Positions 9,436 to 41,682 of a stretch of DNA of 47,167 nucleotides are shown here, in pieces; position 1 is the stretch's first letter, and each line of letters begins with the position of its first letter. The DNA comes from a virus (taxonomy: Duplodnaviria > Heunggongvirae > Uroviricota > Caudoviricetes): IMG/VR virus record IMGVR_UViG_2861084961_000002. One strand, written 5' to 3'. The position numbers were made by a program, and so were the translations under genes. The notes beneath the pieces were generated by a model, which saw nothing but the letters and a program-made list of their open reading frames with translations, made no database searches and had not been told where the DNA came from.

Positions 9436-10333
<898 letters not shown>

Positions 10334-10807: not shown

Positions 10808-10814
10808 GATGGGA

Positions 10815-11799: not shown

Positions 11800-12516
<717 letters not shown>

Positions 12517-12523
12517 TTAAATC

Positions 12524-12589
12524 TATCACCGCAAGGGATAAATATCTAACACCGTGCGTGTTGACTATTTTACCTCTGGCGGTGATAAT
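12524..12589. promoter_or_regulatory. oR3-oR2-oR1 operators with divergent pRM and pR promoters
   Basis: TATCACCGCAAGGGATA, TAACACCGTGCGTGTTG, TACCTCTGGCGGTGATA; pR -35 TTGACT (12561-12566) and -10 GATAAT (12584-12589). Confidence 0.9.
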
Positions 12590-12604
12590 AGTTGCATGTA
12601 CTAA

Positions 12605-12814
<210 letters not shown>

Positions 12815-12821
12815 ATAACCC

Positions 12822-12853
12822 CGCTCTTACCCATCCCCGCCCTGAAAAAGGGC
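12822..12853 (+). promoter_or_regulatory. nutR: nutR (boxA CGCTCTTAC, boxB GCCCTGAAAAAGGGC)
   Basis: Both motifs read directly downstream of cro. Confidence 0.85.
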
Positions 12854-12932
12854 ATCCAATTAAACCACACCTATGGTGTATGCATTTATTTGCATACATT
12901 CAATCAATTGTTATCTAAGGAAATACTTACAT

Positions 12933-13226
12933 ATGGTTCGTGCAAACAAACGCAACGAGGCACTACGAATCGAGAGTGCGTTGCTTAACAAAATCGCAAT
13001 GCTTGGAACTGAGAAGACAGCGGAAGCTGTGGGAGTTGATAAGTCGCAGATCAGCAGGTGGAAGAGAGACTGGATTCCCAAGTTCTCAATGCTGCTTGCT
13101 GTTCTTGAATGGGGGGTCGTTGACGACGACATGGCTCGATTGGCGCGACAAGTTGCTGCGATTCTCACCAATAAAAAACGCCCGGCGGCAACCGAGCGTT
13201 CTGAACAAATCCAGATGGAGTTCTGA
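12933..13226 (+). CDS. cII: CII transcriptional activator
   Basis: 97-aa product MVRANKRNEALRIESALLNKIAMLGTEKTAEAVGVDKSQISRWKRDW... inside track ORF 12873-13226. Confidence 0.95.
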   Translation: MVRANKRNEALRIESALLNKIAMLGTEKTAEAVGVDKSQISRWKRDWIPKFSMLLAVLEWGVVDDDMARLARQVAAILTNKKRPAATERSEQIQMEF

Positions 13227-13248
13227 GGTCATTACTGGATCTATCAAC
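13172..13248 (-). ncRNA. oop: OOP antisense RNA (position inferred from lambda; ends approximate)
   Basis: Minus-strand hairpin plus T-run near 13165-13195 antisense to the cII 3' end; coordinates transferred from the lambda map, not determined independently. Confidence 0.4.
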
Positions 13249-13258
13249 AGGAGTCATT

Positions 13259-14158
13259 ATGACAAATACAGCAAAAATACTCAACTTCGGCAGAGGTAAC
13301 TTTGCCGGACAGGAGCGTAATGTGGCAGATCTCGATGATGGTTACGCCAGACTATCAAATATGCTGCTTGAGGCTTATTCGGGCGCAGATCTGACCAAGC
13401 GACAGTTTAAAGTGCTGCTTGCCATTCTGCGTAAAACCTATGGGTGGAATAAACCAATGGACAGAATCACCGATTCTCAACTTAGCGAGATTACAAAGTT
13501 ACCTGTCAAACGGTGCAATGAAGCCAAGTTAGAACTCGTCAGAATGAATATTATCAAGCAGCAAGGCGGCATGTTTGGACCAAATAAAAACATCTCAGAA
13601 TGGTGTATCCCTCAAAACGAGGGACAATCCCCTAAAACGAGGGATAAAACATCCCTCAAATTGGGGGATTGCTATCCCTCAAAACAGGGGGACACAAAAG
13701 ACACTATTACAAAAGAAAAAAGAAAAGATTATTCGTCAGAGAATTCTGGCGAATCCTCTGACCAGCCAGAAAACGATCTTTCTGTGGTTAAACCGGATGC
13801 TGCAATTCAGAGCGGCAGCAAGTGGGGGACAGCAGAAGACCTGACCGCCGCAGAGTGGATGTTTGACATGGTGAAGACTATCGCACCATCAGCCAGAAAA
13901 CCGAATTTTGCTGGGTGGGCTAACGATATCCGCCTGATGCGTGAACGTGACGGACGTAACCACCGCGATATGTGTGTGCTTTTCCGCTGGGCCTGCCAGG
14001 ACAACTTCTGGTCCGGTAACGTGCTGAGTCCGGCCAAACTCCGCGACAAGTGGACCCAGCTCGAAATCAACCGTAACAAGCAACAGGCAGGCGTGACAGC
14101 CAGCAAACCAAAACTCGACCTGACAAACACTGACTGGATTTACGGGGTGGATTTATGA
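13259..14158 (+). CDS. O: Replication initiator O
   Basis: 299-aa ORF recognised as lambda O; contains the ori iterons. Confidence 0.97.
   Translation: MTNTAKILNFGRGNFAGQERNVADLDDGYARLSNMLLEAYSGADLTKRQFKVLLAILRKTYGWNKPMDRITDSQLSEITKLPVKRCNEAKLELVRMNIIKQQGGMFGPNKNISEWCIPQNEGQSPKTRDKTSLKLGDCYPSKQGDTKDTITKEKRKDYSSENSGESSDQPENDLSVVKPDAAIQSGSKWGTAEDLTAAEWMFDMVKTIAPSARKPNFAGWANDIRLMRERDGRNHRDMCVLFRWACQDNFWSGNVLSPAKLRDKWTQLEINRNKQQAGVTASKPKLDLTNTDWIYGVDL
13607..13745 (+). repeat. ori-lambda: four ATCCCTCAAAACGAGGGA-type iterons plus adjacent AT-rich tract
   Basis: Tandem iterons read directly inside the O gene, followed by an A/T-rich segment. Confidence 0.9.
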
Positions 14159-14856
14159 AAAACATCGCCGCACAGATGGTTAACTTTGACCGTGAGCAGA
14201 TGCGTCGGATCGCCAACAACATGCCGGAACAGTACGACGAAAAGCCGCAGGTACAACAGGTAGCGCAGATCATCAATGGTGTGTTCAGCCAGTTACTGGC
14301 AACTTTCCCGGCGAGCCTGGCTAACCGGGACCAGAACGAACTGAACGAAATCCGCCGCCAGTGGGTGCTGGCTTTCCGGGAAAACGGGATCACCACAATG
14401 GAACAGGTTAACGCAGGAATGCGCGTAGCCCGTCGGCAGAATCGACCATTTCTGCCATCACCCGGGCAGTTTGTTGCATGGTGCCGGGAAGAAGCATCCG
14501 TTATCGCCGGACTGCCAAACGTCAGCGAGCTGGTTGATATGGTTTACGAGTATTGCCGGAAGCGAGGCCTGTATCCGGATGCGGAGTCTTATCCGTGGAA
14601 ATCAAACGCGCACTACTGGCTGGTTACCAACCTGTATCAGAACATGCGGGCCAATGCGCTTACTGATGCGGAATTACGCCGTAAGGCCGCAGATGAGCTT
14701 GTCCATATGACTGCGAGAATTAACCGTGGTGAGGCGATCCCTGAACCAGTAAAACAACTTCCTGTCATGGGCGGTAGACCTCTAAATCGTGCACAGGCTC
14801 TGGCGAAGATCGCAGAAATCAAAGCTAAGTTCGGACTGAAAGGAGCAAGTGTATGA
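14155..14856 (+). CDS. P: Replication protein P (DnaB loader)
   Basis: 233-aa ORF recognised as lambda P. Confidence 0.97.
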   Translation: MKNIAAQMVNFDREQMRRIANNMPEQYDEKPQVQQVAQIINGVFSQLLATFPASLANRDQNELNEIRRQWVLAFRENGITTMEQVNAGMRVARRQNRPFLPSPGQFVAWCREEASVIAGLPNVSELVDMVYEYCRKRGLYPDAESYPWKSNAHYWLVTNLYQNMRANALTDAELRRKAADELVHMTARINRGEAIPEPVKQLPVMGGRPLNRAQALAKIAEIKAKFGLKGASV

Positions 14857-15143
14857 CGGGCAAAGAGGCAATTATTCATTACCTGGGGACGCATAATAGC
14901 TTCTGTGCGCCGGACGTTGCCGCGCTAACAGGCGCAACAGTAACCAGCATAAATCAGGCCGCGGCTAAAATGGCACGGGCAGGTCTTCTGGTTATCGAAG
15001 GTAAGGTCTGGCGAACGGTGTATTACCGGTTTGCTACCAAGGAAGAACGGGAAGGAAAGATGAGCACGAACCTGATTTTTAAGGAGTGTCGCCAGAGTGC
15101 CGCGATGAAACGGGTATTGGCGGTATATGGAGTTAAAAGATGA
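14853..15143 (+). CDS. ren: Ren
   Basis: 96-aa ORF MTGKEAIIHYLGTHNSFCAPDVAALTGATVTSINQAAAKMARAG... Confidence 0.9.
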   Translation: MTGKEAIIHYLGTHNSFCAPDVAALTGATVTSINQAAAKMARAGLLVIEGKVWRTVYYRFATKEEREGKMSTNLIFKECRQSAAMKRVLAVYGVKR

Positions 15144-15216
15144 CCATCTACATCACTGAGCTAATAACAGGCCTGCTGGTAATCGCAGGCCTTTTTATTT
15201 GGGGGAGAGGGAAGTC

Positions 15217-15657
15217 ATGAAAAAACTAACCTTTGAAATTCGATCTCCAGCACATCAGCAAAACGCTATTCACGCAGTACAGCAAATCCTTCCAGACCCA
15301 ACCAAACCAATCGTAGTAACCATTCAGGAACGCAACCGCAGCTTAGACCAAAACAGGAAGCTATGGGCCTGCTTAGGTGACGTCTCTCGTCAGGTTGAAT
15401 GGCATGGTCGCTGGCTGGATGCAGAAAGCTGGAAGTGTGTGTTTACCGCAGCATTAAAGCAGCAGGATGTTGTTCCTAACCTTGCCGGGAATGGCTTTGT
15501 GGTAATAGGCCAGTCAACCAGCAGGATGCGTGTAGGCGAATTTGCGGAGCTATTAGAGCTTATACAGGCATTCGGTACAGAGCGTGGCGTTAAGTGGTCA
15601 GACGAAGCGAGACTGGCTCTGGAGTGGAAAGCGAGATGGGGAGATCGGGCTGCATGA
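15217..15657 (+). CDS. ninB: NinB recombination protein
   Basis: 146-aa product MKKLTFEIRSPAHQQNAIHAVQQILPDPTKPIVVTIQERNRSLDQNRKLWACLGDV... Confidence 0.93.
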   Translation: MKKLTFEIRSPAHQQNAIHAVQQILPDPTKPIVVTIQERNRSLDQNRKLWACLGDVSRQVEWHGRWLDAESWKCVFTAALKQQDVVPNLAGNGFVVIGQSTSRMRVGEFAELLELIQAFGTERGVKWSDEARLALEWKARWGDRAA

Positions 15658-16181
15658 CTATCAAATCAAATACGCCAGCACACGACAAGGACTGCTGGCA
15701 AACGCCGCTTTGGCTTTTTGATGCACTGGATATTGAGTTTGGATTCTGGCTGGATTCTGCAGCGAGCGACAAAAATGCTCTGTGTGCTCACTGGCTAACT
15801 GAGGCCGACGACGCGCTCAATTCTGAGTGGGTAAGCCACGGTGCAATCTGGAATAACCCACCGTACAGCAATATCAGGCCGTGGGTGGAAAAAGCCGCTG
15901 AGCAGTGCATACAACAGCGACAGACGGTAGTTATGCTTGTGCCAGAGGATATGTCAGTCGGATGGTTCAGCAAGGCTCTGGAGAGTGTCGACGAAGTTCG
16001 CATTATCACTGATGGACGGATTAATTTTATCGAACCATCGACAGGGCTGGAGAAGAAGGGAAACAGCAAAGGCTCCATGCTGCTGATTTGGCGACCGTTC
16101 ATCAGTCCTCGACGGATGTTTACTACCGTATCCAAAGCGGCATTGATGGCGATCGGGCAGGGCGTCAGGAGGGCGGCATGA
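15654..16181 (+). CDS. Phage Dam-type DNA N6-adenine methyltransferase (in the ninC position)
   Basis: Start [26 protein letters not shown]... with ATGA overlap to ninB; NPPY motif (IWNNPPYSN). Confidence 0.8.
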
Positions 16182-16354
16182 GGCGACAGCGACGAAGTTT
16201 CACCGACATCATCTGCGAAAACTGCAAATACCTTCCAACGAAACGCTCCAGAAATAAACGCAAGCCAATCCCAAAAGAATCTGACGTAAAAACCTTCAAT
16301 TACACAGCTCACCTGTGGGATATCCGGTGGCTAAGATATCGTGCGAGGAAATGA
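16178..16354 (+). CDS. ninE: NinE-like protein
   Basis: 58-aa product [58 protein letters not shown]; AGGAGG RBS; ATGA overlap. Confidence 0.75.
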
Positions 16355-16698
16355 CAATGGATTATTCACAGTTAAGTGATTTTGAAATTAACAGAATGGT
16401 AGGAGACATAATTTTTAAAGGCCTTTGGGCAAGTAAACCGGAAACATCAGGGAATAACACCAACAAATGGTATTACGGAAATGCTGATACAACTTTTGAG
16501 CCATTAAATCATTTGCCTGACTACTGCAATGATCCGAGCGCTTCATGGCCGATTATTGAGAAATACAGGATTTCTATCTTAGACCAGTTAACTGAATGGT
16601 GTGTGGATGCAAAAGGCGTAAGCCCAATATTTGATGCCAGACCTCTCCGCGCCGCCATGATTGTCTTTCTCCTGATGCAGGAGGCCAATAATGCTTAG
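16351..16698 (+). CDS. Hypothetical nin-region protein
   Basis: 115-aa ORF from ATG 16351 with GAGGAA RBS; not recognised. Confidence 0.6.
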
Positions 16699-16885
16699 CC
16701 CATCTCAATCCCTTCAATACCTGAAAGGAAGCATAGAGCGGGCTTCAATGTGCACAGAGTGGATTCTATCTAGGTTTAGCGCATACAGAAGATTGCCGGT
16801 AAAGGGCATGCCAAGCAAGTCGATGCTGCATATGCAAAAGAATGCGCGCTGGAAGGTATGGCGAGAACACAGGTTATCTGGCTGA
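16691..16885 (+). CDS. NinF-like protein (N-terminus as in lambda NinF, divergent C-terminus)
   Basis: [18 protein letters not shown]... resembles the NinF N-terminus I recall; the rest does not. Confidence 0.5.
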
Positions 16886-16904
16886 AAGAGGGGGTTATTA
16901 AGGC

Positions 16905-17267
16905 GTGAATACCTACAGCATCACATTACCCTGGCCTCCGAGCAATAATCGCTATTACCGCCATAATCGCGGGCGCACGCACGTTAGCGCAGAGGGGCAG
17001 GCATACTGCGATAACGTCGCCCGAATCATTAAAAACGCAATGCTGGATATCGGCCTGGCTATGCCTGTGAAAATCCGCATTGAGTGCCACATGCCGGATC
17101 GCCGTCGCCGTGACCTGGATAATCTGCAAAAAGCCTCTTTTGACGCACTCACCAAAGCAGGTTTCTGGCTGGATGATGCTCAGGTCGTTGATTACCGCGT
17201 TGTGAAGATGCCTGTTACCAAAGGTGGGAGGCTGGAACTGACCATCACCGAAATGGGGAATGAATGA
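16905..17267 (+). CDS. rusA: RusA Holliday-junction resolvase
   Basis: 120-aa [50 protein letters not shown]... Confidence 0.92.
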
Positions 17268-17404
17268 TGTTTGAGTTTAATATGGCAGAACTTCTTCGCC
17301 ACCGCTGGGGGCGTCTGCGCTTATATCGTTTCCCCGGTTCTGTTTTGACCGATTACCGAATACTGAAGAATTACGCCAAAACCCTGACAGGAGCAGGAGT
17401 ATGA
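17264..17404 (+). CDS. ylcG: Small protein YlcG-like (46 aa)
   Basis: Hand-translated [46 protein letters not shown], overlapping rusA stop; same position as DLP12 ylcG. Confidence 0.6.
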
Positions 17405-17489
17405 AGTCAGAGATAACAATCAACTAATACTGTTTTGTTGATTTTTGCTTGTAATTGGCGTTCTGGTCTGATTTTTGTGGAGTAAGTTG

Positions 17490-17873
17490 ATGCGTGATAT
17501 TCAGATGGTTCTTGAGCGTTGGGGAGCGTGGGCGGCTAATAATCATGAAGATGTGACCTGGTCGTCCATTGCCGCCGGTTTTAAGGGATTAATTACTTCA
17601 AAAGTAAAATCTCGCCCGCAATGTTGTGACGATGACGCGATGATCATTTGCGGGTGCATGGCCCGTCTGAAAAAGAACAACAGCGATTTGCACGATTTAT
17701 TAGTAGATTATTATGTAGTCGGTATGACATTCATGTCACTGGCAGGTAAGCATTGCTGCTCTGATGGTTATATCGGGAAAAGGTTACAGAAGGCTGAGGG
17801 TATAATTGAAGGGATGTTAATGGCATTAGATATCCGGTTAGAGATGGATATCGTTGTTAATAACTCTAATTAA
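17490..17873 (+). CDS. Q: Late antiterminator Q (phage 82 / QuuD type)
   Basis: 127-aa product [60 protein letters not shown]...; GGAG RBS. Confidence 0.9.
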
Positions 17874-18060
17874 TATGCCAATTGTTTACTAAAAATTATT
17901 AAAAATGGGGCGTTGAGACGCCCCCAAAAATAAAGGGTAATATATAACAGAAGGTTTATATAGTTAGAAGCAAGGTTGTGCTTCTAAAGGAAGTGGCTTG
18001 AGGGAGCCACTTATATGTTGGGGAGGCAACGCCTCCCGCAACATATCTTTTTCGTAATCA
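17874..18060. promoter_or_regulatory. Q-proximal late regulatory region with four stem-loops (putative pR'/qut; minus-strand porin terminator at 17889-17924)
   Basis: Hairpins at about 17907-17924, 17966-17985, 17992-18011 and 18021-18037; the first is followed on the minus strand by ATTTTTAATAATTTTT. Confidence 0.4.
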
Positions 18061-18062
18061 GA

Positions 18063-19160
18063 TTAGAACTGGTAAACCAGACCTACAGCAACGATGTCAT
18101 CAGTGCTTACACCGAGTGCTTTAGTGAAGTCATTTTTGTCAAGCAGGTTGATTTTGTAATCAACGAAAGTAGACATATTTTTGTTGAAGTAATAGGTTGC
18201 ACCTACATCAACATATTTGACTAAGTCCTGATCGCCCCATACTCCAAGATCCTTACCTTTAGATTGCAGGTAAGCAACGGACGGACGCAGACCGAAATCG
18301 AACTGATATTGTGCAACAGCTTCGAAGTTTTGGGCTTTATTAGCAACGAAGTGATCAGCAAATACAGTCATATTCTGGGTTTCAGAATAGGTAGTGGCCA
18401 GGTAAATGTTGTTAGCGTCATATTTCAGACCTGCGGCCCAAACTTCTGCATTTTTACCGGAAGCAAATACTTCAGGAAGAACTTTCCCTGCATTAACTTG
18501 AGTGTCGGTACGATCAGATTTCGCATAAGTTGCACCGATACCGAATCCTTCGTATTCATAGGTAGCAGAGAAACCGAAGCCATCACCGTTACCTTCAGTG
18601 TAGTTATCGAAATCGCTACGATCGTTTTTGCCTTGGTACTGAGCAGCAAAATTCAGACCATCAACCAGACCAAAGAAGTCGTTGTTACGATAGGTTGCAA
18701 CACCAGTTGCACGTTGAGTCATGAACACGTCGGTTTGAGTCCAAGTGTCACCACCGAATTCTGGCAGGACGTCAGTCCACGCACCGATGTCGTATGCTAC
18801 ACCGTAGTTACGGCCGTAATCGATGGAGCCGTAGTCACCGAATTTCAGGCCAGCGAAGGCAAGACGGGTTTTATCTTTGGAGGAACCTTGAGATTCAGCG
18901 CGGTTGCCTTTGAATTCATATTCCCACTGACCGAAACCAGTCAGTTGATCGTTGATTTGGGTTTCACCTTTGAAGCCAAGACGGGCATAAGTAGTATCAC
19001 CATCATCTGCATCATTAGAGGAGAAGTAGTGCTTAGCATTAACTTTCCCGTACAGATCCAGCTTGTTACTGTCTTTATTATAAATTTCAGCTGCCTGAGC
19101 AGACATCGCCATCAGTACTGATGCAGCTACAGCAGAAATTGCCACTGTTAATTTTTTCAT
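18063..19160 (-). CDS. nmpC: Outer-membrane porin, NmpC/Lc (OmpC-family) type; lysogenic-conversion gene
   Basis: Start [23 protein letters not shown] (signal peptide) inside track ORF 18063-19220; C-terminal ...VAVGLVYQF beta-barrel signature. Confidence 0.9.
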
Positions 19161-19587
19161 CGTGAGCCCTTTTTTTGAACTATTATTAAAAAATGATGTC
19201 ACTGCGCGATAAATATTCATCTAATCAATGTGATTATTTCAAGATGTAAGTTTTGGTTTCTCGTTTGATTTGTGAAGTAGATCTCTATTTTTATCTGAAC
19301 TTTTTTCTATCGAATCCTATTCATGGCTCTTGGCTGAATAAAAATAAATCTGTTAGCCAATTTATATTAACGGCTGTTATTTATAAGCGCTCTATAATTT
19401 GAAGGTTCAATTTAAACCAGCTAAAAATAACACTGGAAATTATTTGTTGGTTATTTGTTGAGATTTGCTTATGTATTTGTAGTGGTGTTTTCAATACTCG
19501 GTAGCATTCTCGCAAATATCATTTAGTGGTTTACGTACGTAAAAAATTGGTTATGCTGTTAAGAGTGGTTACTTCGTCACACAGCTT

Positions 19588-19620
19588 AAACCCGCCGTCG
19601 AGCGGGTTTTTCCATTTTTT
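19588..19620 (+). terminator. Rho-independent terminator upstream of the lysis genes (tR'-like)
   Basis: Stem AAACCCGC/GCGGGTTT with 6-nt loop followed by TTTTCCATTTTTT. Confidence 0.6.
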
Positions 19621-19732
19621 GAGTCTCGATATTAGCTGATAACCCAATACCTGAGTTATTCACTGACTCCGAGTCTGTTACGTTTCGTAGTATTCCCTCA
19701 ATTTACACCCGCTTTGTCTGCGAGGTGGGGTT

Positions 19733-19948
19733 ATGAAATCCATGGATAAGTTAACAACGGGTGTCGCCTATGGCACCTCAGCAGGTAGTGCCGGGTACTG
19801 GTTTTTACAGCTGCTAGATAAAGTCACGCCCTCACAGTGGGCGGCAATTGGAGTGCTGGGTAGCCTGGTATTTGGCCTGCTGACGTACCTGACAAACCTT
19901 TATTTCAAGATTAAAGAAGATAAGCGCAAGGCTGCGAGAGGTGGATAA
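19733..19948 (+). CDS. S: Holin (phage 21 S-type; dual start MKSMDK)
   Basis: 71-aa ORF with transmembrane segments and charged C-terminus; GAGGTGGGG RBS. Confidence 0.9.
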
Positions 19949-20445
19949 TGCCTCCATCATTACGAAAAGCTGTTGCTGCTGCTATTGGTGGCGGGGCTAT
20001 TGCTATAGCATCTGTATTAATCACTGGCCCAAGTGGTAACGATGGTCTGGAAGGTGTGAGACATAATCCTTACAAAGACATAGTTGGTGTATGGACTGTA
20101 TGTCACGGGCATACAGGAAAAGACATCATTCCCGGTAAAACGTATACCGAAGCAGAGTGCAAAGCCCTCCTGAATAAAGACCTTGCCACTGTCGCCAGAC
20201 AAATTAACCCGTACATCAAAGTCGATATACCGGAAACAACGCGCGGCGCTCTTTACTCGTTCGTCTACAACGTGGGTGCTGGCAATTTCAGAACATCGAC
20301 GCTTCTTCGCAAAATAAACCAGTGTGATATTAAAGGCGCATGTGATCAGCTACGTCGCTGGACATATGCTGGCGGTAAGCAATGGAAAGGTCTCATGACT
20401 CGTCGTGAGATTGAGCGTGAAATCTGTTTGTGGGGTCAGCAATGA
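19948..20445 (+). CDS. R: Endolysin (lysozyme, SAR-type N-terminus)
   Basis: 165-aa ORF with hydrophobic N-terminus [15 protein letters not shown] and lysozyme-like body; overlaps holin stop. Confidence 0.9.
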
Positions 20446-20903
20446 ACAGAGTAACCGCGATTATCTCCGCTCTGGTTATCTGCATCATCGTCGGCCTGTC
20501 ATGGGCTGTTAATCATTACCGTGATAACGCCATTACCTACAAAGCCCAGCGCGACAAAAATGCCAGAGAACTGAAGCTGGCGAACGCGGCAATTACTGAC
20601 ATGCAGATGCGTCAGCGTGATGTTGCTGCGCTCGATGCAAAATACACGAAGGAGTTAGCTGATGCGAAAGCTGAAAATGATGCTCTGCGTGATGATGTTG
20701 CCGCTGGTCGTCGTCGGTTGCACATCAAAGCAGTCTGTCAGTCAGTGCGTGAAGCCACCACCGCCTCCGGCGTGGATAATGCAGCCTCCCCCCGACTGGC
20801 AGACACCGCTGAACGGGATTATTTCACCCTCAGAGAGAGGCTGATTACTATGCAAAAACAACTGGAAGGAACCCAGAAGTATATTAATGAGCAGTGCAGA
20901 TAG
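20442..20903 (+). CDS. Rz: Spanin inner-membrane subunit Rz
   Basis: Start [22 protein letters not shown] (TM) then coiled coil; overlaps endolysin stop. Confidence 0.85.
20662..20844 (+). CDS. Rz1: Spanin outer-membrane lipoprotein subunit Rz1, embedded in Rz
   Basis: 60-aa ORF with lipobox VVGC and proline-rich tail, in the +1 frame of Rz. Confidence 0.85.
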
Positions 20904-20934
20904 AGCTGCCCATATCTATGGGCAACTCATGCAA

Positions 20935-21228
20935 TTATTGTGAGCAATACACACGCGCTTCCAGCGGAGTATAAATGCCTAAAGTAATAAAACCGAGAAA
21001 TCCATTTACGAATGTTTGCTGGGTTTCTGTTTTAACAACATTTTCTGCGCCGCCACAAATTTTGGCTGCATCAACAGTTTTCTCCTGTCCAATTCCCGAA
21101 ACGAAGAAATGATGGGTGATGGTTTCCTTTGGTGTTACTGCTGTCGGTTTGTTTCCAACAGTAAACGTCTGTTGAGCACATCCTGTAATAAGCATTGCCA
21201 GAGCGGCAGAAAACAACATTTTTTTCAT
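20935..21228 (-). CDS. bor: Bor lipoprotein (serum-resistance, lysogenic conversion)
   Basis: 97-aa product MKKMLFSAALAMLITGCAQQTFTVGNKPTAVTPKETITHHFFVSGIGQEKTVDAAKICGG... Confidence 0.92.
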   Translation of the reverse strand: MKKMLFSAALAMLITGCAQQTFTVGNKPTAVTPKETITHHFFVSGIGQEKTVDAAKICGGAENVVKTETQQTFVNGFLGFITLGIYTPLEARVYCSQ

Positions 21229-21588
21229 CTTATTATCCTGCATTGTTAAAAACGGCAGAATCCTATGTGACAACAATTAAACGATAGTTAAATGGATTGA
21301 TGAAAATTAAAACTATATAGGTGGATGCTCAGCCTATTGGAGGAGGGGGGGCACTCAGAATCCTGTGGAATGAAATAAACCGCTCTTTCTGTCCATTACC
21401 CTTTTAGCTGCGCTGTATCGTCGCCGTATTCCCGCATTAACCATGACCGTAGCCCGACGGGGAATTCCTTCTGCGTGAGTGTGCGGGAATAATCAAAAAC
21501 GATGCACACCGGGTTTTACTGTGCTGACAGACGCAGGGTTACCCTCATAGTCGCTTTTCCGGTGCGATGGTGGAAGAAACCGGGATGT

Positions 21589-21783
21589 TTATTCATCATC
21601 ACTCTGGATTGATGTATATGCTCTCTTTTCTGACGTTAGTCTCCGACGGCAGGCTTCAATGACCCAGGCTGAGAAATTCCCGGACCCTTTTTGCTCAAGA
21701 GCGATGTTAATTTGTTCAATCATTTGGTTAGGAAAGCGGATGTTGCGGGTTGTTGTTCTGCGGGTTCTGTTCTTCGTTGACAT
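21589..21783 (-). CDS. Small basic hypothetical protein (YlcI-like)
   Basis: 64-aa ORF MSTKNRTRRTTTRNIRFPNQMIEQINIALEQKGSGNFSAWVIEACRRRL...; identity from memory only. Confidence 0.5.
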   Translation of the reverse strand: MSTKNRTRRTTTRNIRFPNQMIEQINIALEQKGSGNFSAWVIEACRRRLTSEKRAYTSIQSDDE

Positions 21784-21983
21784 GAGGTTGCCCCGTATTC
21801 AGTGTCGCTGATTTGTATTGTCTGAAGTTGTTTTTACGTTAAGTTGATGCAGATCAATTAATACGATACCTGCGTCATAATTGATTATTTGACGTGGTTT
21901 GATGGCGTAGATGCACGTTGTGACATATAGATGATAATTATTATCATTTTGCGGGTCCTTTCCGGCGATCCGACAGGTTACGG

Positions 21984-21995
21984 GGCGGCGACCTC
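21984..21995 (+). other. cos: cosN cohesive-end site GGGCGGCGACCT (cosQ upstream, cosB downstream)
   Basis: Lambda left-end sequence GGGCGGCGACCTCGCGGGTTTTCGCTATTTATGAAAATTTTCCGG read directly; upstream matches the lambda right end. Confidence 0.93.
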
Positions 21996-22171
21996 GCGGG
22001 TTTTCGCTATTTATGAAAATTTTCCGGTTTAAGGCGTTTCCGTTCTTCTTCGTCGTAACTTAATGTTTTTATTTAAAATACCCCCTGAAAAGAAAGGAAA
22101 CGACAGGTGCTGAAAACGAGCTTTTGGGCCTCTGTCGTTTCCTTTCTCTGTTTTTGGCCGTGGAATGAACA

Positions 22172-22690
22172 ATGGAAGTCAACAAAAAGCAGCTGGCTGA
22201 CATTTTCGGTGCGAGTATCCGTACCATTCAGAACTGGCAGGAACAGGGAATGCCCGTTCTGCGAGGCGGTGGCAAGGGTAATGAGGTGCTTTATGACTCT
22301 GCCGCCGTCATAAAATGGTATGCCGAAAGGGATGCTGAAATTGAGAACGAAAAGCTGCGCCGGGAAGTTGAAGAACTGCGGCAGGCCAGCGAGACAGATC
22401 TCCAGCCAGGGACTATTGAGTACGAACGCCATCGACTTACGCGTGCGCAGGCCGACGCACAGGAGCTGAAAAATGCCAGAGACTCCGCTGAAGTGGTGGA
22501 AACCGCATTCTGTACTTTCGTGCTGTCGCGGATCGCAGGTGAAATTGCCAGTATTCTCGACGGGATCCCCTGTCGGTGCAGCGGCGTTTTCCGGAACTGG
22601 AAAACCGACATGTTGATTTCCTGAAACGGGATATCATCAAAGCCATGAACAAAGCAGCCGCGCTGGATGAACTGATACCGGGGTTGCTGA

Positions 22691-22716
<26 letters not shown>
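22172..22716 (+). pseudogene. nu1: Terminase small subunit Nu1, frameshifted by a 1-nt deletion in a C-run at 22566-22570
   Basis: Track ORF ends at 22624 after DGIPCRCSGVFRNWKTDMLIS; the lambda C-terminus ...RFPELENRHVDFLKRDIIKAMNKAAALDELIPGLLSEYIEQSG is intact in the +1 frame to 22716. Confidence 0.85.
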
Positions 22717-26397
<3,681 letters not shown>

Positions 26398-26417: not shown

Positions 26418-27717
26418 TCTCCCGCATATTGCCAGTATGGCCTTTAATGAGCCGCTGATGCTTGAACCCGCCTATGCGCGGGTTTTCTTTTGTGCGCTTG
26501 CAGGCCAGCTTGGGATCAGCCGCCTGACGGATGCGGTATCCGGCGACAGCCTGACTGCCGGAGAGGCACCCGCGGCGCTGGCGTTATCCGTTGATGATGA
26601 CGGACCACGACAGGCCCGCAGTTATCAGGTCATGAACGGCATCGCCGTGCTGCCGGTGTCCGGCACGCTGGTCAGTCGGACGCGAGCGCTGCAGCCGTAT
26701 TCGGGGATGACCGGTTACAACGGCATTATCGCCCGTCTGCAACAGGCTGCCAGCGACCCGATGGTGGACGGCATTCTGCTCGATATGGATACGCCAGGCG
26801 GGATGGTGGCAGGGGCATTTGACTGCGCTGACATCATCGCCCGTGTGCGTGACATAAAGCCGGTATGGGCGCTGGCCAACGACATGAACTGCAGTGCAGG
26901 TCAGTTGCTTGCCAGCGCCGCCTCCCGACGTCTGGTCACGCAGACCGCCCGGACAGGCTCCATCGGCGTCATGATGGCTCACAGTAATTACGGTGCTGCG
27001 CTGGAGAAACAGGGCGTGGAAATCACGCTGATTTACAGCGGCAGCCATAAGGTGGATGGCAACCCCTACAGCCATCTACCGGATGATGTCCGGGAAACAC
27101 TGCAGTCCCGGATGGATGCAACCCGCCGGATGTTTGCACAGAAGGTGTCGGCATATACCGGCCTGTCCGTGCAGGCTGTGCTGGATACCGAGGCTGCAGT
27201 GTACAGCGGTCAGGAGGCCATTGATGCCGGACTGGCTGATGAACTTGTTAACAGTACCGATGCGATCACCGTCATGCGTGATGCACTGGATGCACGTAAA
27301 TCCCGTCTCTCAGGAGGGCGAATGACCAAAGAGACTCAATCAACAACTGTTTCAGCCACTGCTTCGCAGGCTGACGTTACTGGCGTGGTGCAAGCGACGG
27401 AGGGCGAGAACGCCAGCGCGGCGCAGCCGGACGTGAACGCGCAGATCACCGCAGCGGTTGCGGCAGAAAACAGTCGCATTATGGGGATCCTCAACTGTGA
27501 GGAGGCTCACGGACGCGAAGAACAGGCACGCGTGCTGGCCGAAACCCCCGGTATGACCGTGGAAACGGCCCGCCGCATTCTGGCAGCTGCACCACAGAGT
27601 GCACAGGCGCGCAGTGACACTGCGCTGGATCGTCTGATGCAGGGGGCACCGGCACCGCTGGCTGCAGGTAACCCGGCATCTGATGCCGTTAACGATTTGC
27701 TGAACACACCAGTGTAA
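26398..27717 (+). CDS. C: Capsid assembly protease C (GTG start)
   Basis: 439-aa product VTAELRNLPHIASMAFNEPLMLEPAYARVFF... inside longer track ORF 26263-27717. Confidence 0.93.
27112..27717 (+). CDS. nu3: Scaffold protein Nu3 (in-frame internal start within C)
   Basis: In-frame ATG at 27112 giving MDATRRMFAQKVSAYTGLSVQ..., as recalled for lambda Nu3. Confidence 0.7.
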   Translation: MDATRRMFAQKVSAYTGLSVQAVLDTEAAVYSGQEAIDAGLADELVNSTDAITVMRDALDARKSRLSGGRMTKETQSTTVSATASQADVTGVVQATEGENASAAQPDVNAQITAAVAAENSRIMGILNCEEAHGREEQARVLAETPGMTVETARRILAAAPQSAQARSDTALDRLMQGAPAPLAAGNPASDAVNDLLNTPV

Positions 27718-27726
27718 GGGATGTTT

Positions 27727-28059
27727 ATGACGAGCAAAGAAACCTTTACCCATTACCAGCCGCTGGGCAACAGTGACCCGGCACATACGGCAACCGCGCC
27801 CGGCGGATTGAGTGCGAAAGCGCCTGCAATGACCCCGCTGATGCTGGATACCTCCACCCGTAAGCTGGTTGCGTGGGATGGCACCACCGACGGTGCTGCC
27901 GTTGGCATTCTGGCGGTTGATGCTGACCAGACCAGCACCACGCTGACGTTCTACAAGTCCGGCACGTTCCGTTATGAGGATGTGCTCTGGCCGGAGGCTG
28001 CCAGCGACGAGACGAAAAAACGGACCGCGTTTGCCGGAACGGCAATCAGCATCGTTTAA
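27727..28059 (+). CDS. D: Capsid decoration protein D
   Basis: 110-aa product [41 protein letters not shown]... Confidence 0.97.
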
Positions 28060-28077
28060 CTTTACCCTTCATCACTA

Positions 28078-28101
28078 AAGGCCGCCTGTGCGGCTTTTTT
28101 T
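28078..28101 (+). terminator. Rho-independent terminator between D and E
   Basis: Stem GCCGC/GCGGC with loop CTGT followed by TTTTTTT. Confidence 0.6.
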
Positions 28102-28114
28102 ACGGGATTTTTTT

Positions 28115-29140
28115 ATGTCGATGTACACAACCGCCCAGCTGCTGGCGGCAAATGAGCAGAAATTTAAGTTTGATCCGCTGTTTCTGCGTCTCTTTTTCCG
28201 TGAGAGCTATCCCTTCACTACGGAGAAAGTCTATCTCTCACAAATTCCGGGACTGGTAAACATGGCGCTGTACGTTTCGCCGATTGTTTCCGGTGAGGTT
28301 ATCCGTTCCCGTGGCGGCTCCACCTCTGAATTTACGCCGGGATATGTCAAACCCAAGCATGAAGTGAATCCGCAGATGACCCTGCGTCGCCTGCCGGATG
28401 AAGATCCGCAGAATCTGGCGGACCCGGCTTACCGCCGCCGTCGCATCATCCTGCAGAACATGCGTGACGAAGAGCTGGCCATTGCTCAGGTCGAAGAGAT
28501 GCAGGCAGTTTCTGCCGTGCTCAAGGGCAAATACACCATGACCGGTGAAGCCTTCGATCCGGTTGAGGTGGATATGGGCCGCAGTGCGGCGAACAACATC
28601 ACGCAGTCCGGCGGCACGGAGTGGAGCAAGCGTGACAAGTCCACGTATGACCCGACCGACGATATCGAAGCCTACGCGCTGAACGCCAGCGGCGTGGTGA
28701 ATATCATCGTGTTTGATCCGAAAGGCTGGGCGCTGTTCCGTTCCTTCAACGCCGTCAAGGAGAAGCTGGATACCCGTCGCGGCTCTCATTCCGAGCTGGA
28801 GACAGCGGTGAAAGACCTGGGTAAAGCGGTGTCCTATAAGGGGATGTATGGCGATGTGGCCATCGTCGTGTATTCCGGACAGTACGTGGAAAACGGCGTC
28901 AAAAAGAACTTCCTGCCGGACAACACGATGGTGCTGGGTAACACTCATGCACGCGGTCTGCGCACCTATGGCTGCATTCAGGATGCGGACGCACAGCGCG
29001 AAGGCATTAACGCCTCTGCCCGTTACCCGAAAAACTGGGTGACCACCGGCGATCCGGCGCGTGAGTTCACCATGATTCAGTCAGCACCGCTGATGCTGCT
29101 GGCTGACCCTGATGAGTTCGTGTCCGTACAACTGGCGTAA
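28115..29140 (+). CDS. E: Major capsid protein E
   Basis: 341-aa product MSMYTTAQLLAANEQKFKFDPLFLRLFFRESYPFTTEKVYLSQIPGLVNMA... Confidence 0.97.
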   Translation: MSMYTTAQLLAANEQKFKFDPLFLRLFFRESYPFTTEKVYLSQIPGLVNMALYVSPIVSGEVIRSRGGSTSEFTPGYVKPKHEVNPQMTLRRLPDEDPQNLADPAYRRRRIILQNMRDEELAIAQVEEMQAVSAVLKGKYTMTGEAFDPVEVDMGRSAANNITQSGGTEWSKRDKSTYDPTDDIEAYALNASGVVNIIVFDPKGWALFRSFNAVKEKLDTRRGSHSELETAVKDLGKAVSYKGMYGDVAIVVYSGQYVENGVKKNFLPDNTMVLGNTHARGLRTYGCIQDADAQREGINASARYPKNWVTTGDPAREFTMIQSAPLMLLADPDEFVSVQLA

Positions 29141-29181
29141 TCATGGCCCTTCGGGGCCATTGTTTCTCTGTGGAGGAGTCC

Positions 29182-29577
29182 ATGACGAAAGATGAACTGA
29201 TTGCCCGTCTCCGCTCGCTGGGTGAACAACTGAACCGTGATGTCAGCCTGACGGGGACGAAAGAAGAACTGGCGCTCCGTGTGGCAGAGCTGGAAGAGGA
29301 GCTTGATGACACGGATGACGCTGCCGGTCAGGACACATCTGTCAGCCCGGAAAATGCGCTGACCGGACATGAAAATGAGGTGGTATCAGCGCAGCCGGAT
29401 ACCGTGACTGATACGGCTGATCTGGTCACGGTTGTGGCACTGGTGACGCTGCATACTGATGCACTTCACGCCACGCGGGATGAGGCTGTGGCATTTGTGC
29501 TGCCGGGAACGGCGTTCCGTGTCTCTGCCGGTGTGGCAGCTGAAATGACAGAGCGCGGCCTGGCCAGAATGCAATAA
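29182..29577 (+). CDS. FI: DNA-packaging protein FI
   Basis: Start MTKDELIARLRSLGEQLNRDVSLTGTKEELALRVAELEEEL... inside track ORF 29143-29577. Confidence 0.93.
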   Translation: MTKDELIARLRSLGEQLNRDVSLTGTKEELALRVAELEEELDDTDDAAGQDTSVSPENALTGHENEVVSAQPDTVTDTADLVTVVALVTLHTDALHATRDEAVAFVLPGTAFRVSAGVAAEMTERGLARMQ

Positions 29578-29588
29578 CGGGAGGCGCT

Positions 29589-29942
29589 GTGGCTGATTTC
29601 GATAACCTGTTCGATGCTGCCATTGCCCGCGCCGATGAAACGATACGCGGGTACATGGGAACGTCAGCCACCATGACATCCGGTGAGCAGTCCGGCGCAG
29701 TAATACGTGGTGTTTTTGATGACCCTGAAAATATCAGCTATGCCGGACAGGGCGTACGCGTTGAAGGCTCCAGCCCGTCCCTGTTTGTCCGGACTGATGA
29801 TGTGCGGCAGCTGCGGCGCGGCGACACGCTGACCATCGGTGAGGAAAACTTCTGGATAGACCGGATTTCGCCGGATGATGGCGGAAGCTGTCATCTCTGG
29901 CTTGGGCGGGGCGTACCGCCTGCCGTTAACCGTCGCCGCTGA
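29589..29942 (+). CDS. FII: Head completion protein FII
   Basis: 117-aa ORF recognised as lambda gpFII. Confidence 0.95.
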   Translation: MADFDNLFDAAIARADETIRGYMGTSATMTSGEQSGAVIRGVFDDPENISYAGQGVRVEGSSPSLFVRTDDVRQLRRGDTLTIGEENFWIDRISPDDGGSCHLWLGRGVPPAVNRRR

Positions 29943-29953
29943 AAGGGGGATGT

Positions 29954-30531
29954 ATGGCCATAAAAGGTCTTGAGCAGGCCGTTGAAAACCTCAGCCGTAT
30001 CAGCAGAACGGCGGTGCCCGGTGCCGCCGCAATGGCCATTAACCGCGTTGCTTCATCCGCGATATCGCAGTCGGCGTCACAGGTTGCCCGTGAGACAAAG
30101 GTACGCCGGAAACTGGTAAAGGAAAGGGCCTGGCTGAAAAGGGCCACGGTCAAAAATCCGCAGGCCAGAATCAAGGTTAACCGGGGGATTTGCCCGTAAT
30201 AAAGCTGGGTAACGCGCGGATTGTCCTGTCCCGACGCAGGCGTCGTAAAAAGGGGCAGCGTTCAGCCCTGAAAGGTGGCGGCAGCGTGCTTGTGGTGGGA
30301 AACCGTCGTATTCCCGGCGCGTTTATTCAGCAACTGAAAAATGGCCGCTGGCATGTCATGCAGCGTGTGGCCGGGAAAAACCGTTACCCCATTGATGTGG
30401 TGAAAATCCCGATGGCGGTGCCGCTGACCACGGCGTTTAAACAGAATATTGAGCGGATACGGCGTGAGCGTCTTCCGAAAGAGCTGGGCTATGCGCTGCA
30501 GCATCAACTGAGGATGGTAATAAAGCGATGA
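29954..30531 (+). pseudogene. Z: Tail completion protein Z, frameshifted by a 1-nt deletion in a G-run at 30183-30187
   Basis: Z is split into track ORFs 29954-30199 (ends ...NRGICP*) and 30190-30531 (MPVIKLGNARIVLSRRRRRKKGQR...); lambda reads NRGDLPVIKLG across this point. Confidence 0.85.
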
Positions 30532-30923
30532 AACATACTGAACTCCGTGCAGCCGTACTGGATGCACTGGAGAAGCATGACACCGGGGCGACGTTTTTTG
30601 ATGGTCGCCCTGCTGTTTTTGATGAGGAAGATTTTCCGGCAATTGCCGTTTATCTCACCGGCGCTGAATACACGGGCGAAGAGCTGGACAGCGATACCTG
30701 GCAGGCGGAGCTGCATATTGAAGTTTTCCTGCCTGCTCAGGTGCCGGATTCAGAGCTGGATGCGTGGATGGAGTCCCGGATTTATCCGGTGATGAGCGAT
30801 ATCCCGGCACTGTCAGATTTGATCACCAGTATGGTGGCCAGTGGCTATGACTACCGGCGCGACGATGATGCGGGCTTGTGGAGTTCTGCCGATCTGACGT
30901 ATGTCATTACCTATGAAATGTGA
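30528..30923 (+). CDS. U: Tail terminator protein U
   Basis: 131-aa ORF recognised as lambda gpU. Confidence 0.95.
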
Positions 30924-30930
30924 GGACGAT

Positions 30931-31671
30931 ATGCCTGTACCAAATCCAGCAATACCGGTGAAAGGTGCCGGAACCACCCTGTGGGTTTATAAGGGGAGCG
31001 GTGACCCTTATGCGAACCCGCTTTCAGACGTTGACTGGTCGCGTCTGGCAAAAGTTAAAGACCTGACGCCCGGCGAACTGACCGCTGAGTCCTATGACGA
31101 CAGCTATCTCGATGATGAAGATGCAGACTGGACTGCGACCGGGCAGGGGCAGAAATCTGCCGGAGATACCAGCTTCACGCTGGCGTGGATGCCCGGAGAG
31201 CAGGGGCAGCAGGCGCTGCTGGCGTGGTTTAATGAAGGTGATACCCGTGCCTATAAAATCCGCTTCCCGAACGGCACGGTCGATGTGTTCCGTGGCTGGG
31301 TCAGCAGTATCGGTAAGGCGGTGACGGCGAAGGAAGTGATTACCCGCACGGTGAAGGTCACCAATGTGGGCCGTCCGTCGATGGCAGAAGATCGCAGCAC
31401 GGTGACGGCGACGACCGGCATGACGGTGACACCCGCCAGTGCTTCCGTAGTGAAAGGGCAGAGCACCACGCTGACCGTGGCATTCCAGCCGGATGGCGCA
31501 ACCGACAAGAGCTTCCGTGCGGTGTCTGCGGATAAAACAAAAGCCACCGTGTCGGTCAGTGGTATGACCATCACCGTGAAAGGTGTTGCTGCAGGCAAGG
31601 TCAACATTCCGGTCGTATCTGGTAATGGTGAGTTTGCTGCGGTTGCAGAAATCAACGTCACCGCCAGTTAA
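30931..31671 (+). CDS. V: Major tail tube protein V (with C-terminal Ig-like domain)
   Basis: 246-aa product [45 protein letters not shown]... Confidence 0.97.
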
Positions 31672-31686
31672 TCCGGAGAGTCAGCG

Positions 31687-32109
31687 ATGTTCCTGAAAAC
31701 CGAATCATTTGAACATAACGGTGTGACCGTCACGCTTTCTGAACTGTCAGCCCTGCAGCGTATTGAGCATCTCGACCTGATGAAACGGCAGGCAGAACAG
31801 GCGGAGTCAGACAGCAACCGGAAGTTTACTGTGGAAGACGCCATCAGAACCGGTGCTTTTGTGGTAGCGATGTCCCTGTGGCATAACCATCCGCAGAAGA
31901 CAAAGCTGCCTTCCATGAATGAAGCCGTTAAACAGATTGAGCAGGAAGTGCTTACCACCTGGCCCACAGAGGCAATTTCTCATGCTGAAAACGTGGTGTA
32001 CCGGCTGTCCGGTATGTATGAGTTTGTGGTGAATGATGCTCCTGAACAGGCAGAGGACGCCGGGCCTGCAGTGCCTGTTTCTGCGGGAAAGTGTTCGACG
32101 GTGAGCTGA
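31687..32109 (+). CDS. G: Tail assembly chaperone G
   Basis: 140-aa ORF recognised as lambda gpG; slippery G GGA AAG at 32085-32091. Confidence 0.95.
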   Translation: MFLKTESFEHNGVTVTLSELSALQRIEHLDLMKRQAEQAESDSNRKFTVEDAIRTGAFVVAMSLWHNHPQKTKLPSMNEAVKQIEQEVLTTWPTEAISHAENVVYRLSGMYEFVVNDAPEQAEDAGPAVPVSAGKCSTVS

Positions 32110-32525
32110 GTTTTGCCCTGAAACTGGCGCGTGAGATGGGGCGACCCGACTGGCGCGCCATGCTTGCCGGGATGTCATCCACGGAGTATGCCGACTGGCA
32201 CCGCTTTTACAGTACCCATTATTTTCATGATGTTCTGCTGGATATGCACTTTTCCGGGCTGACGTACACCGTGCTCAGCCTGTTTTTCAGCGATCCGGAG
32301 ATGCATCCGCTGGATTTCAGTCTGCTGAACCGGCGCGAGGCTGACGAAGAGCCTGAAGATGATGTGCTGATGCAGAAAGCGGCAGGGCTTGCCGGAGGCG
32401 TTCGTTTTGGCCCGGACGGGAATGAAGTTATCCCCGCTTCCCCGGATGTGGCGGACATGACGGAGGATGACGTAATGCTGATGACAGTATCAGAAGGGAT
32501 CGCAGGAGGAGTCCGGTATGGCTGA
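31687..32525 (+). CDS. T: Tail assembly chaperone G-T fusion, made by programmed -1 frameshift at 32085-32091
   Basis: T-frame ORF 32091-32525 lies -1 relative to G and overlaps its 3' end; canonical G GGA AAG heptamer present. Confidence 0.85.
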
Positions 32526-35079
32526 ACCGGTAGGCGATCTGGTCGTTGATTTAAGTCTGGATGCGGCCAGATTTGACGAGCAGATGGCCAGAGTCAGGCG
32601 TCATTTTTCCGGTACGGAAAGTGATGCGAAAAAAACAGCGGCAGTCGTTGAACAGTCAATGAACCGGCAGGCGCTGGCTGCACAGAAAGCGGGGATTTCC
32701 GTCGGACAGTATAAAGCCGCCATGCGTATGCTGCCTGCACAGTTCACCGACGTGGCCACGCAGCTTGCAGGCGGGCAAAGTCCGTGGCTGATCCTGCTGC
32801 AACAGGGGGGGCAGGTTAAGGACTCCTTCGGCGGGATGATCCCCATGTTCAGGGGGCTTGCCGGTGCGATCAACCTGCCGATGGTGGGGGCCACCTCGCT
32901 GGCGGTGGCGACCGGTGCGCTGGCGTATGCCTGGTATCAGGGCAACTCAACCCTGTCCGATTTCAACAAAACGCTGGTCCTTTCCGGCAATCAGTCGGGT
33001 CTGACGGCAGATCGCATGCTGGTCCTGTCCAGAGCCGGGCAGGTGGCAGGGCTGACGTTTAACCAGACCAGCGAGTCACTCAGCGCACTGGTTAAGGCGG
33101 GAGTAAGCGGTGAGGCTCAGATTGCGTCCATCAGCCAGAGTGTGGCGCGTTTCTCCTCTGCATCCGGTGTGGAGGTGGACAAGGTCGCTGAAGCCTTCGG
33201 GAAGCTGACCACAGACCCGACGTCGGGGTTGACGGCGATGGCACGCCAGTTCCATAACGTGACGGCGGAGCAGATTGCGTATGTTGCTCAGTTGCAGCGT
33301 TCCGGCGATGAAGCCGGGGCATTGCAGGCGGCGAACGAGGCCGCGACGAAAGGGTTTGATGACCAGACCCGCCGCCTGAAAGAGAACATGGGTACGCTGG
33401 AGACCTGGGCAGACAGGACAGCGCGGGCATTCAAATCCATGTGGGATGCGGTGCTGGATATTGGTCGTCCTGATACCGCGCAGGAGATGCTGATTAAGGC
33501 AGAGGCTGCGTTTAAGAAAGCGGACGACATCTGGAGTCTGCGCAAGGATGATTATTTTGTTAACGATGAAGCGCGGGCGCGTTACTGGGATGATCGTGAA
33601 AAGGCCCGTCTTGCGCTTGAAGCCGCGAGAAAGAAGGCTGAACAGCAGAGTCAACAGGACACAAATGCGCAGCAGCAGAGCGATACTGAAGCGTCACGGC
33701 TGAAATATACCGAAGAGGCGCAGAAGGCTTACGAACGGCTGCAGACGCCGCTGGAGAAATATACCGCCCGTCAGGAAGAACTGAACAAGGCACTGAAGGA
33801 CGGGAAAATTCTGCAGGCAGATTACAACACGCTGATGGCGGCGGCGAAAAAGGACTATGAAGCGACGCTGAAAAAGCCGAAACAGTCCGGCGTGAAGGTG
33901 TCTGCGGGCGATCGTCAGGAAGACAGTGCTCATGCTGCCCTGCTGACGCTTCAGGCTGAACTCCGGACGCTGGAGAGGCATGCCGGAGCAAATGAGAAAA
34001 TCAGCCAGCAGCGCCGGGATTTGTGGAAGGCGGAGAGTCAGTTCGCGGTACTGGAGGAGGCGGCGCAACGTCGCCAGCTGTCTGCACAGGAGAAATCCCT
34101 GCTGGCGCATAAAGATGAGACGCTGGAGTACAAACGCCAGCTGGCTGCACTTGGCGACAAGGTTACGTATCAGGAGCGCCTGAACGCGCTGGCGCAGCAG
34201 GCGGATAAATTCGCACAGCAGCAACGGGCAAAACGGGCCGCCATTGATGCGAAAAGCCGGGGGCTGACTGACCGGCAGGCAGAACGGGAAGCCACGGAAC
34301 AGCGCCTGAAGGAACAGTATGGCGATAATCCGCTGGCGCTGAATAACGTCATGTCAGAGCAGAAAAAGACCTGGGCGGCTGAAGACCAGCTTCGCGGGAG
34401 CTGGATGGCAGGCCTGAAGTCCGGCTGGAGTGAGTGGGAAGAGAGCGCCACGGACAGTATGTCGCAGGTTAAAAGTGCTGCCACGCAGACCTTTGATGGT
34501 ATTGCACAGAATATGGCGGCGATGCTGACCGGCAGTGAGCAGAACTGGCGCAGCTTCACCCGTTCCGTGCTGTCCATGATGACAGAAATTCTGCTTAAGC
34601 AGGCAATGGTGGGGATTGTCGGGAGTATCGGCAGCGCCATTGGCGGGGCTGTTGGTGGCGGCGCATCCGCGTCAGGCGGTACAGCCATTCAGGCAGCTGC
34701 GGCGAAATTCCATTTTGCGACCGGGGGATTTACGGGAACCGGCGGCAAATATGAGCCAGCGGGGATTGTTCACCGTGGTGAATTTGTCTTCACGAAGGAG
34801 GCAACCAGCCGGATTGGTGTCGGCAACCTGTACCGCCTGATGCGGGGCTATGCGGAAGGTGGTTATGTGGGCGGTGCCGGAAGTCCGGCGCAGATGCGGC
34901 GGGCTGAAGGCATTAATTTTAATCAGAACAATCACGTGGTGATTCAGAACGACGGTACGAATGGTCTGCCAGGTCCACAGATGATGAAGGCAGTGTATGA
35001 CATGGCCCGCAAGGGTGCCCGTGATGAAATTCAGACACAGATGCGTGATGGTGGCCTGTTCTCCGGAGGTGGACGATGA
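32518..35079 (+). CDS. H: Tail tape-measure protein H
   Basis: 853-aa ORF recognised as lambda gpH. Confidence 0.97.
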   Translation: MAEPVGDLVVDLSLDAARFDEQMARVRRHFSGTESDAKKTAAVVEQSMNRQALAAQKAGISVGQYKAAMRMLPAQFTDVATQLAGGQSPWLILLQQGGQVKDSFGGMIPMFRGLAGAINLPMVGATSLAVATGALAYAWYQGNSTLSDFNKTLVLSGNQSGLTADRMLVLSRAGQVAGLTFNQTSESLSALVKAGVSGEAQIASISQSVARFSSASGVEVDKVAEAFGKLTTDPTSGLTAMARQFHNVTAEQIAYVAQLQRSGDEAGALQAANEAATKGFDDQTRRLKENMGTLETWADRTARAFKSMWDAVLDIGRPDTAQEMLIKAEAAFKKADDIWSLRKDDYFVNDEARARYWDDREKARLALEAARKKAEQQSQQDTNAQQQSDTEASRLKYTEEAQKAYERLQTPLEKYTARQEELNKALKDGKILQADYNTLMAAAKKDYEATLKKPKQSGVKVSAGDRQEDSAHAALLTLQAELRTLERHAGANEKISQQRRDLWKAESQFAVLEEAAQRRQLSAQEKSLLAHKDETLEYKRQLAALGDKVTYQERLNALAQQADKFAQQQRAKRAAIDAKSRGLTDRQAEREATEQRLKEQYGDNPLALNNVMSEQKKTWAAEDQLRGSWMAGLKSGWSEWEESATDSMSQVKSAATQTFDGIAQNMAAMLTGSEQNWRSFTRSVLSMMTEILLKQAMVGIVGSIGSAIGGAVGGGASASGGTAIQAAAAKFHFATGGFTGTGGKYEPAGIVHRGEFVFTKEATSRIGVGNLYRLMRGYAEGGYVGGAGSPAQMRRAEGINFNQNNHVVIQNDGTNGLPGPQMMKAVYDMARKGARDEIQTQMRDGGLFSGGGR

Positions 35080-41673: not shown

Positions 41674-41682
41674 TGGGGGAAT

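Follow-up and report, generated by a model that had tools for sequence, protein, structure and literature searches.

The G missing from the tail completion gene Z of the lambda-like Escherichia coli prophage described here is very probably a homopolymer consensus error of long-read sequencing or assembly and not a biological lesion. The analyzed stretch of DNA (47,167 bp, hereafter the window) was compared with its nearest relatives. The sequences point to an artefact because the differences are nearly all one-base homopolymer deletions, because longer G/C runs are preferentially affected, and because the same truncated products occur in unrelated assemblies laden with indels. The run at this site most likely has six G in the true genome, in which case Z would be an intact 192-aa tail completion gene within an intact late region.

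Gene Z as written and after repair

The gene lies downstream of FII (29589-29942) and upstream of U (30528-30923), which is followed by an ORF at the position of V (30901-31671). The features of Z in the window are listed below.

29954-30531, + strand: gene Z, encoding a lambda-type tail completion protein (Pfam Minor_tail_Z), with a 1-nt deletion as written (ORF list, alignment, repair, profile)
30183-30187, + strand: the frameshifting lesion, a run of five G where the relatives have six (alignments, complete-genome census)
29954-30199, + strand: ORF of the N-terminal Z fragment, 81 aa, comprising native residues 1-78, then ICP and a stop, so that the product ends in KVNRGICP (ORF list; profile positions 1-76)
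30190-30531, + strand: ORF of the C-terminal Z fragment, 113 aa as listed from a TTG codon, in the native frame (ORF list; profile positions 79-190)

The split of Z by a five-G run is confirmed in the sequence as written. The letters at 30175-30200 are AACCGGGGGATTTGCCCGTAA, and the program-made ORF list divides the gene into the two ORFs given above. A stop at 30197-30199 interrupts the gene, and an uninterrupted ORF of about 192 codons is absent until one G is added. Aligned at this spot with its counterparts in E. coli strain 104 and in phage mEp332, the window differs solely by the one absent G. Re-insertion of this G yields a 192-aa ORF that is identical to WP_001695577.1 of E. coli strain E5 and reads KVNRGDLPVIKLG. 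The E5 gene (31309-31887 of locus L003) is annotated as ‘phage tail protein’ and its counterpart in mEp332 as ‘tail component protein Z’. Against the Minor_tail_Z profile (190 positions, cut-off 23.9 bits), the two fragments score 98.3 bits (positions 1-76) and 161.7 bits (positions 79-190), while the repaired product scores 271.6 bits over positions 1-190 (E-value 4.8e-81). The original prediction had named the gene as lambda Z and had given its frame, the missing G and the two resulting ORFs. It was right on all of these, and the repaired gene has the predicted reading. A sequence search against all chains in the PDB matched no solved structure of the gpZ family, despite recent cryo-EM of lambda tails.

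Prophage context and cargo

Annotated near-identical relatives identify the window as a lambda-like E. coli prophage in its integrated orientation, extending from ybhC (1-1284) to a copy of IS1 located towards bioA. It contains, in this order, int/xis, an early region, a Q-lysis region that includes a porin gene and iss/bor, and a full lambda-type head/tail operon. The best matches are prophages at the same chromosomal site, whose hosts were isolated from birds, pigs and humans. The iss/bor serum-survival lipoprotein gene (20935-21228) and an OmpC/NmpC-type porin gene (about 18060-19160) represent lysogenic-conversion cargo that is common to relatives in avian pathogenic E. coli.

An ISEc52 element (IS3 family; 7781-9027), annotated as ‘frameshifted’ in strain E5, lies inside an early gene of the DUF2528 family. 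The E5 prophage has the same ISEc52 insertion but has lost the stretch from the IS to rusA, including the immunity and replication genes. Judging by this arrangement, the window looks like the state before the IS-adjacent deletion in E5.

In many near-identical prophages, the major capsid gene E is split by an element of about 11 kb (7145-18452 of locus L001 from strain 104; also in L009, L020 and L027). It carries genes for an integrase, an AlpA-type regulator, a D5/primase and an SSB, together with its own lambda-E-like capsid and decoration genes. The two alignment pieces at the element overlap by 10 bp, which is likely the att core. The element resembles a phage satellite that encodes its own capsid and breaks up the capsid gene of its host prophage. 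Gene E is intact in the window, where the corresponding site is at about 28350-28359.

All differences from the nearest relatives

The closest matches were sought among 5,426 complete E. coli genomes, six relatives were compared and every difference was listed. Strain E5 served as reference for positions 1-9032 and 16868-47167, and FDAARGOS_1287 and 13P477T for positions 9028-22999. Over its 47,167 bp, the window differs from its nearest relatives by one substitution (46676, in IS1) and five one-base differences, every one of which is a base missing from the window within a homopolymer (A7, G8, C5, G6 and G6); there are no insertions. The comparison with E5 gives one gap and no substitution over 1-9032, and four one-base gaps and the substitution at 46676 over 16868-47167 (30.3 kb). 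The part absent from E5 (9028-16868) shows no difference from FDAARGOS_1287 and one substitution from 13P477T (12590). Two of the deletions are located in genes (Nu1 and Z), one in the ribosome-binding region of stf and two between genes. Besides the lesion in Z, the deletions are the following.

3089-3094, + strand: A7 shortened to A6, intergenic, downstream of an LprI-family gene (alignments; annotation of L003 and L005)
21345-21351, + strand: G8 shortened to G7, intergenic between iss/bor and ylcI, with G8 in most near-identical relatives (alignments)
22567-22570, + strand: C5 shortened to C4 in the terminase small subunit gene Nu1/nohD (22172-22716), right after a GATC at 22564 (alignments)
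41675-41679, + strand: G6 shortened to G5 in the ribosome-binding region of the side tail fibre gene stf, whose ATG (41683) follows 3 nt later (alignments; annotation of L003)

The C4 run shifts the frame of Nu1, leaving ORFs of 150 and 46 aa. The original prediction had described two homopolymer lesions in an otherwise intact late region. The total was undercounted, since the window contains five such lesions.

This spectrum is heavily skewed towards indels. With indels at 10% of real differences, at least five indels among six differences would arise with a probability of 5.5e-5; with indels at 20%, the value is 1.6e-3. No indel separates E5 from the polished relatives L001, L006 and L007 in comparisons that span 14-26 kb. 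A census of the runs in the window gave the following counts of shortened runs.

G/C runs with a true length of 6 or more: 3 of 6 shortened
G/C runs with a true length of 5: 1 of 40 shortened
A/T runs with a true length of 7: 1 of 13 shortened
A/T runs with a true length of 4-6: 0 of 455 shortened

Shortening thus depends on run length and base, with longer G/C runs being affected more often.

Two of the tracts have peculiarities of their own. The G tract at 21345-21351 was left out of the firm evidence because it has seven G in FDAARGOS_1287 and six in phage mEp332. It occurs as G8, G7 or G6 across assemblies, including apparently good ones, and is either truly polymorphic or hard to read on every platform. 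The C run in Nu1 stands in the context GGATCCCCC (22564-22570), with a Dam site immediately before the run. Methylation at Dam sites is a known further trigger of R9.4 miscalls, and the adjacent site may explain why this C5 run, among 40 G/C runs of length five, is so often miscalled. Only the Nu1 site adjoins a Dam GATC; the Z run has neither a GATC nor a CCWGG next to it. Methylation-motif error was therefore rejected as a general cause.

Recurrence of the truncated products in other assemblies

Among the complete E. coli records holding the 65-nt stretch of Z around the run, 1,933 of 1,934 have six G and a single one has five. In a large collection of contigs, intact Z was found at least 1,000 times and the truncated Z product nine times. 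The exact 81-aa truncated product is present in at least 12 contigs of other assemblies, from about 10 independent samples, and the loci that carry it lie on backgrounds with 0, 40, 110 and 156 SNPs to E5. Seven of these loci exceed about 5 kb, and in each of them one or more additional homopolymer deletions are present, namely the loss of one or two G from the G7 run of gene H (five loci), of two G from the G8 tract, or of one T from the T6 run of the portal gene. Locus L009 has nine homopolymer deletions in 12 kb. The 11-kb contig L010 has the five-G run of Z and one other homopolymer difference, at a tract that is variable among good genomes too.

The exact 150-aa Nu1 product was found in at least 24 contigs, mostly megabase single-contig assemblies in which neighboring genes are fragmented as well. 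These assemblies have 7-25 homopolymer deletions per 6-16 kb and zero to one homopolymer insertion, with the exception of L027, which has four. The Nu1 truncation occurs in prophages of the Stx type, at the DLP12 site and at the lambda site, and twice in one genome (GCA_910593955). Both the C4 run of Nu1 and the five-G run of Z are present in L021 and L026. Among the loci listed for the two truncated products, none combines an intact E, ISEc52 and the ybhC side as the window does. A published assembly method was sought for six accessions and found for GCA_910593955 alone, which is a Canu-only assembly of MinION R9.4.1 reads from strain NIPH2; a hybrid assembly of this strain (GCA_910593925) was deposited separately (PMC8456039).

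The five-G run is also present in strain RM14723 (locus L018; NZ_CP027103.1, RefSeq complete), where it belongs to a different lambdoid prophage, at the DLP12 site (19802-20379). Z is annotated there by PGAP as a frameshifted pseudogene, and so is gene J (27330-30727).

Two further break points recur in noisy assemblies of this phage family. The T6 run of the portal gene gives a 135-aa fragment in L008, L019-L022 and L026-L028, and the G7 run of the tape-measure gene H gives a 106-aa fragment in L009 and L011-L014; the H run of the window (32805-32811) is intact. Both break points are useful markers of unpolished assemblies of these phages.

Origin of the missing base

In the preferred reading, the length of the run would have been under-called in long-read data that received no polishing or too little of it. 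We infer that the source assembly of the window was made by such a method and that its reads would support six G. Residual errors of nanopore sequencing are mainly homopolymer indels that shift reading frames and fragment genes (PMC8011154), and deletion errors dominate at homopolymers, where run length is estimated conservatively (PMC12007338). The pattern described above has the same traits: the change in Z is one nucleotide in a homopolymer, indels are biased towards deletions and far outnumber substitutions, and the same sites are hit in independent noisy assemblies and clean in polished ones. Identical lesions on unrelated backgrounds, tracking assembly quality and not phylogeny, thus argue for a systematic basecalling or consensus error. 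Some observations stand against it. The density of about one lesion per 9 kb is far below that of the worst assemblies and could fit a real sequence that has decayed slightly. Mutations do concentrate at G-runs, and the IS insertion (7781-9027) indicates that some real decay of the prophage has begun. In addition, the RefSeq complete genome of RM14723 shares the five-G run, and L010 shows it with little other error. These same observations would favor a real and recent replication-slippage mutation, by which a freshly decaying prophage has lost its tail completion protein and, separately, Nu1; homopolymer runs are well established as natural indel hot spots. Such an allele would also matter, as lambda particles lacking gpZ are mostly non-infectious (PMC11099176). 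We nevertheless regard a real mutation as unlikely. Such a history demands that five one-base deletions arose independently and always in the same direction, alongside no more than one substitution. The truncations of Z and Nu1 recur on unrelated haplotypes and prophages with dozens of other homopolymer deletions, in one case in a documented ONT-only assembly. The shortened Z run is absent from all but one of the complete records, and loss of Z would presumably bring no obvious benefit to the host, the lysis genes being intact. A mutator (mismatch-repair-deficient) origin was rejected, as many transitions would be expected and only one substitution was seen. The original prediction had left the choice between a recently decayed prophage and a systematic homopolymer error. 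The five deletions against one substitution, the recurrence in noisy assemblies and the rarity of the five-G run clearly favor the latter and leave recent decay unsupported.

The remaining explanations take the short run as meaningful or as original. The G-run might be a functional switch: as a hypermutable, phase-variable tract, or through -1 slippage of the ribosome or slippage during transcription, it would allow the five-G allele to make some full-length gpZ or would turn tail completion on and off across the population. As read from the sequence, translation would return to the Z frame if tRNA-Gly slipped by -1 on G GGG. The five-G run is seen on several backgrounds, and the classical programmed frameshift of G-T belongs to the same operon. 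Yet Z is one ORF with six G in 1,933 of 1,934 complete genomes, no two-ORF layout is conserved, and the recurrence of the short run follows assembly quality rather than phylogeny. It is also known that runs of five to six G are not long enough to slip efficiently in E. coli with proficient mismatch repair. The run reads C CGG GGG A, in which no X XXY YYZ heptamer is visible by eye, and we know of no stimulatory element for it. We therefore give this explanation very little credence. It is likewise highly improbable that the five-G run is real and recurrent, with the tracts of Z (G), H (G7), Nu1 (C5) and the G8 run switching prophages between tail-competent and tail-defective states; if slippage-prone tracts of this kind did exist, part of the supposed long-read error would be genuine heterogeneity within cultures. 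That the window is right and its relatives carry an insertion error, with five G as the ancestral state, is scarcely credible. Ancestry of the short run is refuted by the six-G run, which over 1,900 complete genomes share with sequenced phage isolates, including those of the lambda group. An error in the relatives is at odds with the single 192-aa ORF that six G give, which matches the Pfam model end to end, and nothing was found in its favor.

Consequences for the prophage and its source assembly

Taken at face value, the sequence would have the prophage scored as defective, with both the terminase gene Nu1 and the tail completion gene Z broken. If the lesions in Nu1 and Z were real, induced cells would lyse without releasing packaged DNA, or would release particles of normal appearance that are mostly non-infectious. 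It is known that gpZ binds the lambda tail after the terminator and that particles without gpZ look normal but are mostly non-infectious (PMC11099176). On the preferred reading of a consensus error, the frameshifts in Nu1 and Z are no ground for classing the prophage as defective. By comparison with its relatives, it appears to be an essentially intact, lambda-like prophage at attB-lambda, a common type in E. coli of avian and other origin. Extrapolated from five lesions in 47 kb, the source assembly as a whole probably contains several hundred homopolymer errors, and its pseudogene counts and prophage-completeness calls should therefore be treated with caution.

Comparison with known systems

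The window gene is the counterpart of lambda gene Z (gpZ, PF06763). It stands in the same FII-Z-U-V-G-T-H order and its repaired product has 192 aa, and the DNA is 98-99% identical to that of lambda-group phages. Unlike lambda Z, the gene as written lacks one G and is divided into ORFs of 81 and 113 aa, which is most likely not a property of the true genome. The classical -1 frameshift of lambda G-T (slippery sequence G GGA AAG) resembles the Z split in being a tail-gene frameshift at a G-rich site of the same operon. In the window, the ORFs of G (31687-32109) and T (32091-32525) have their usual overlapping arrangement. The two overlapping ORFs of G-T are, however, kept in all relatives, whereas the proportion of complete genomes with a split Z is about 0.05%.

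Like the window, the decayed lambdoid prophages of E. coli (for example DLP12, Rac and Qin of K-12) contain an inserted IS, and their morphogenesis genes appear frameshifted. Cryptic prophages have large deletions, many substitutions and IS rearrangements, whereas the genes of the window are all present and essentially identical to those of its relatives. The window is closer to the long-read error class described for ONT R9.4-type and unpolished PacBio data (Homopolish, Kastor), with which it shares homopolymer-only deletions and gene fragmentation. Its density of such deletions is low (five per 47 kb), as expected of a partly polished assembly. With its canonical gene order, Z is unremarkable within the gpZ/Minor_tail_Z family, its lesion belongs to a well-described error class, and no new biology is involved.
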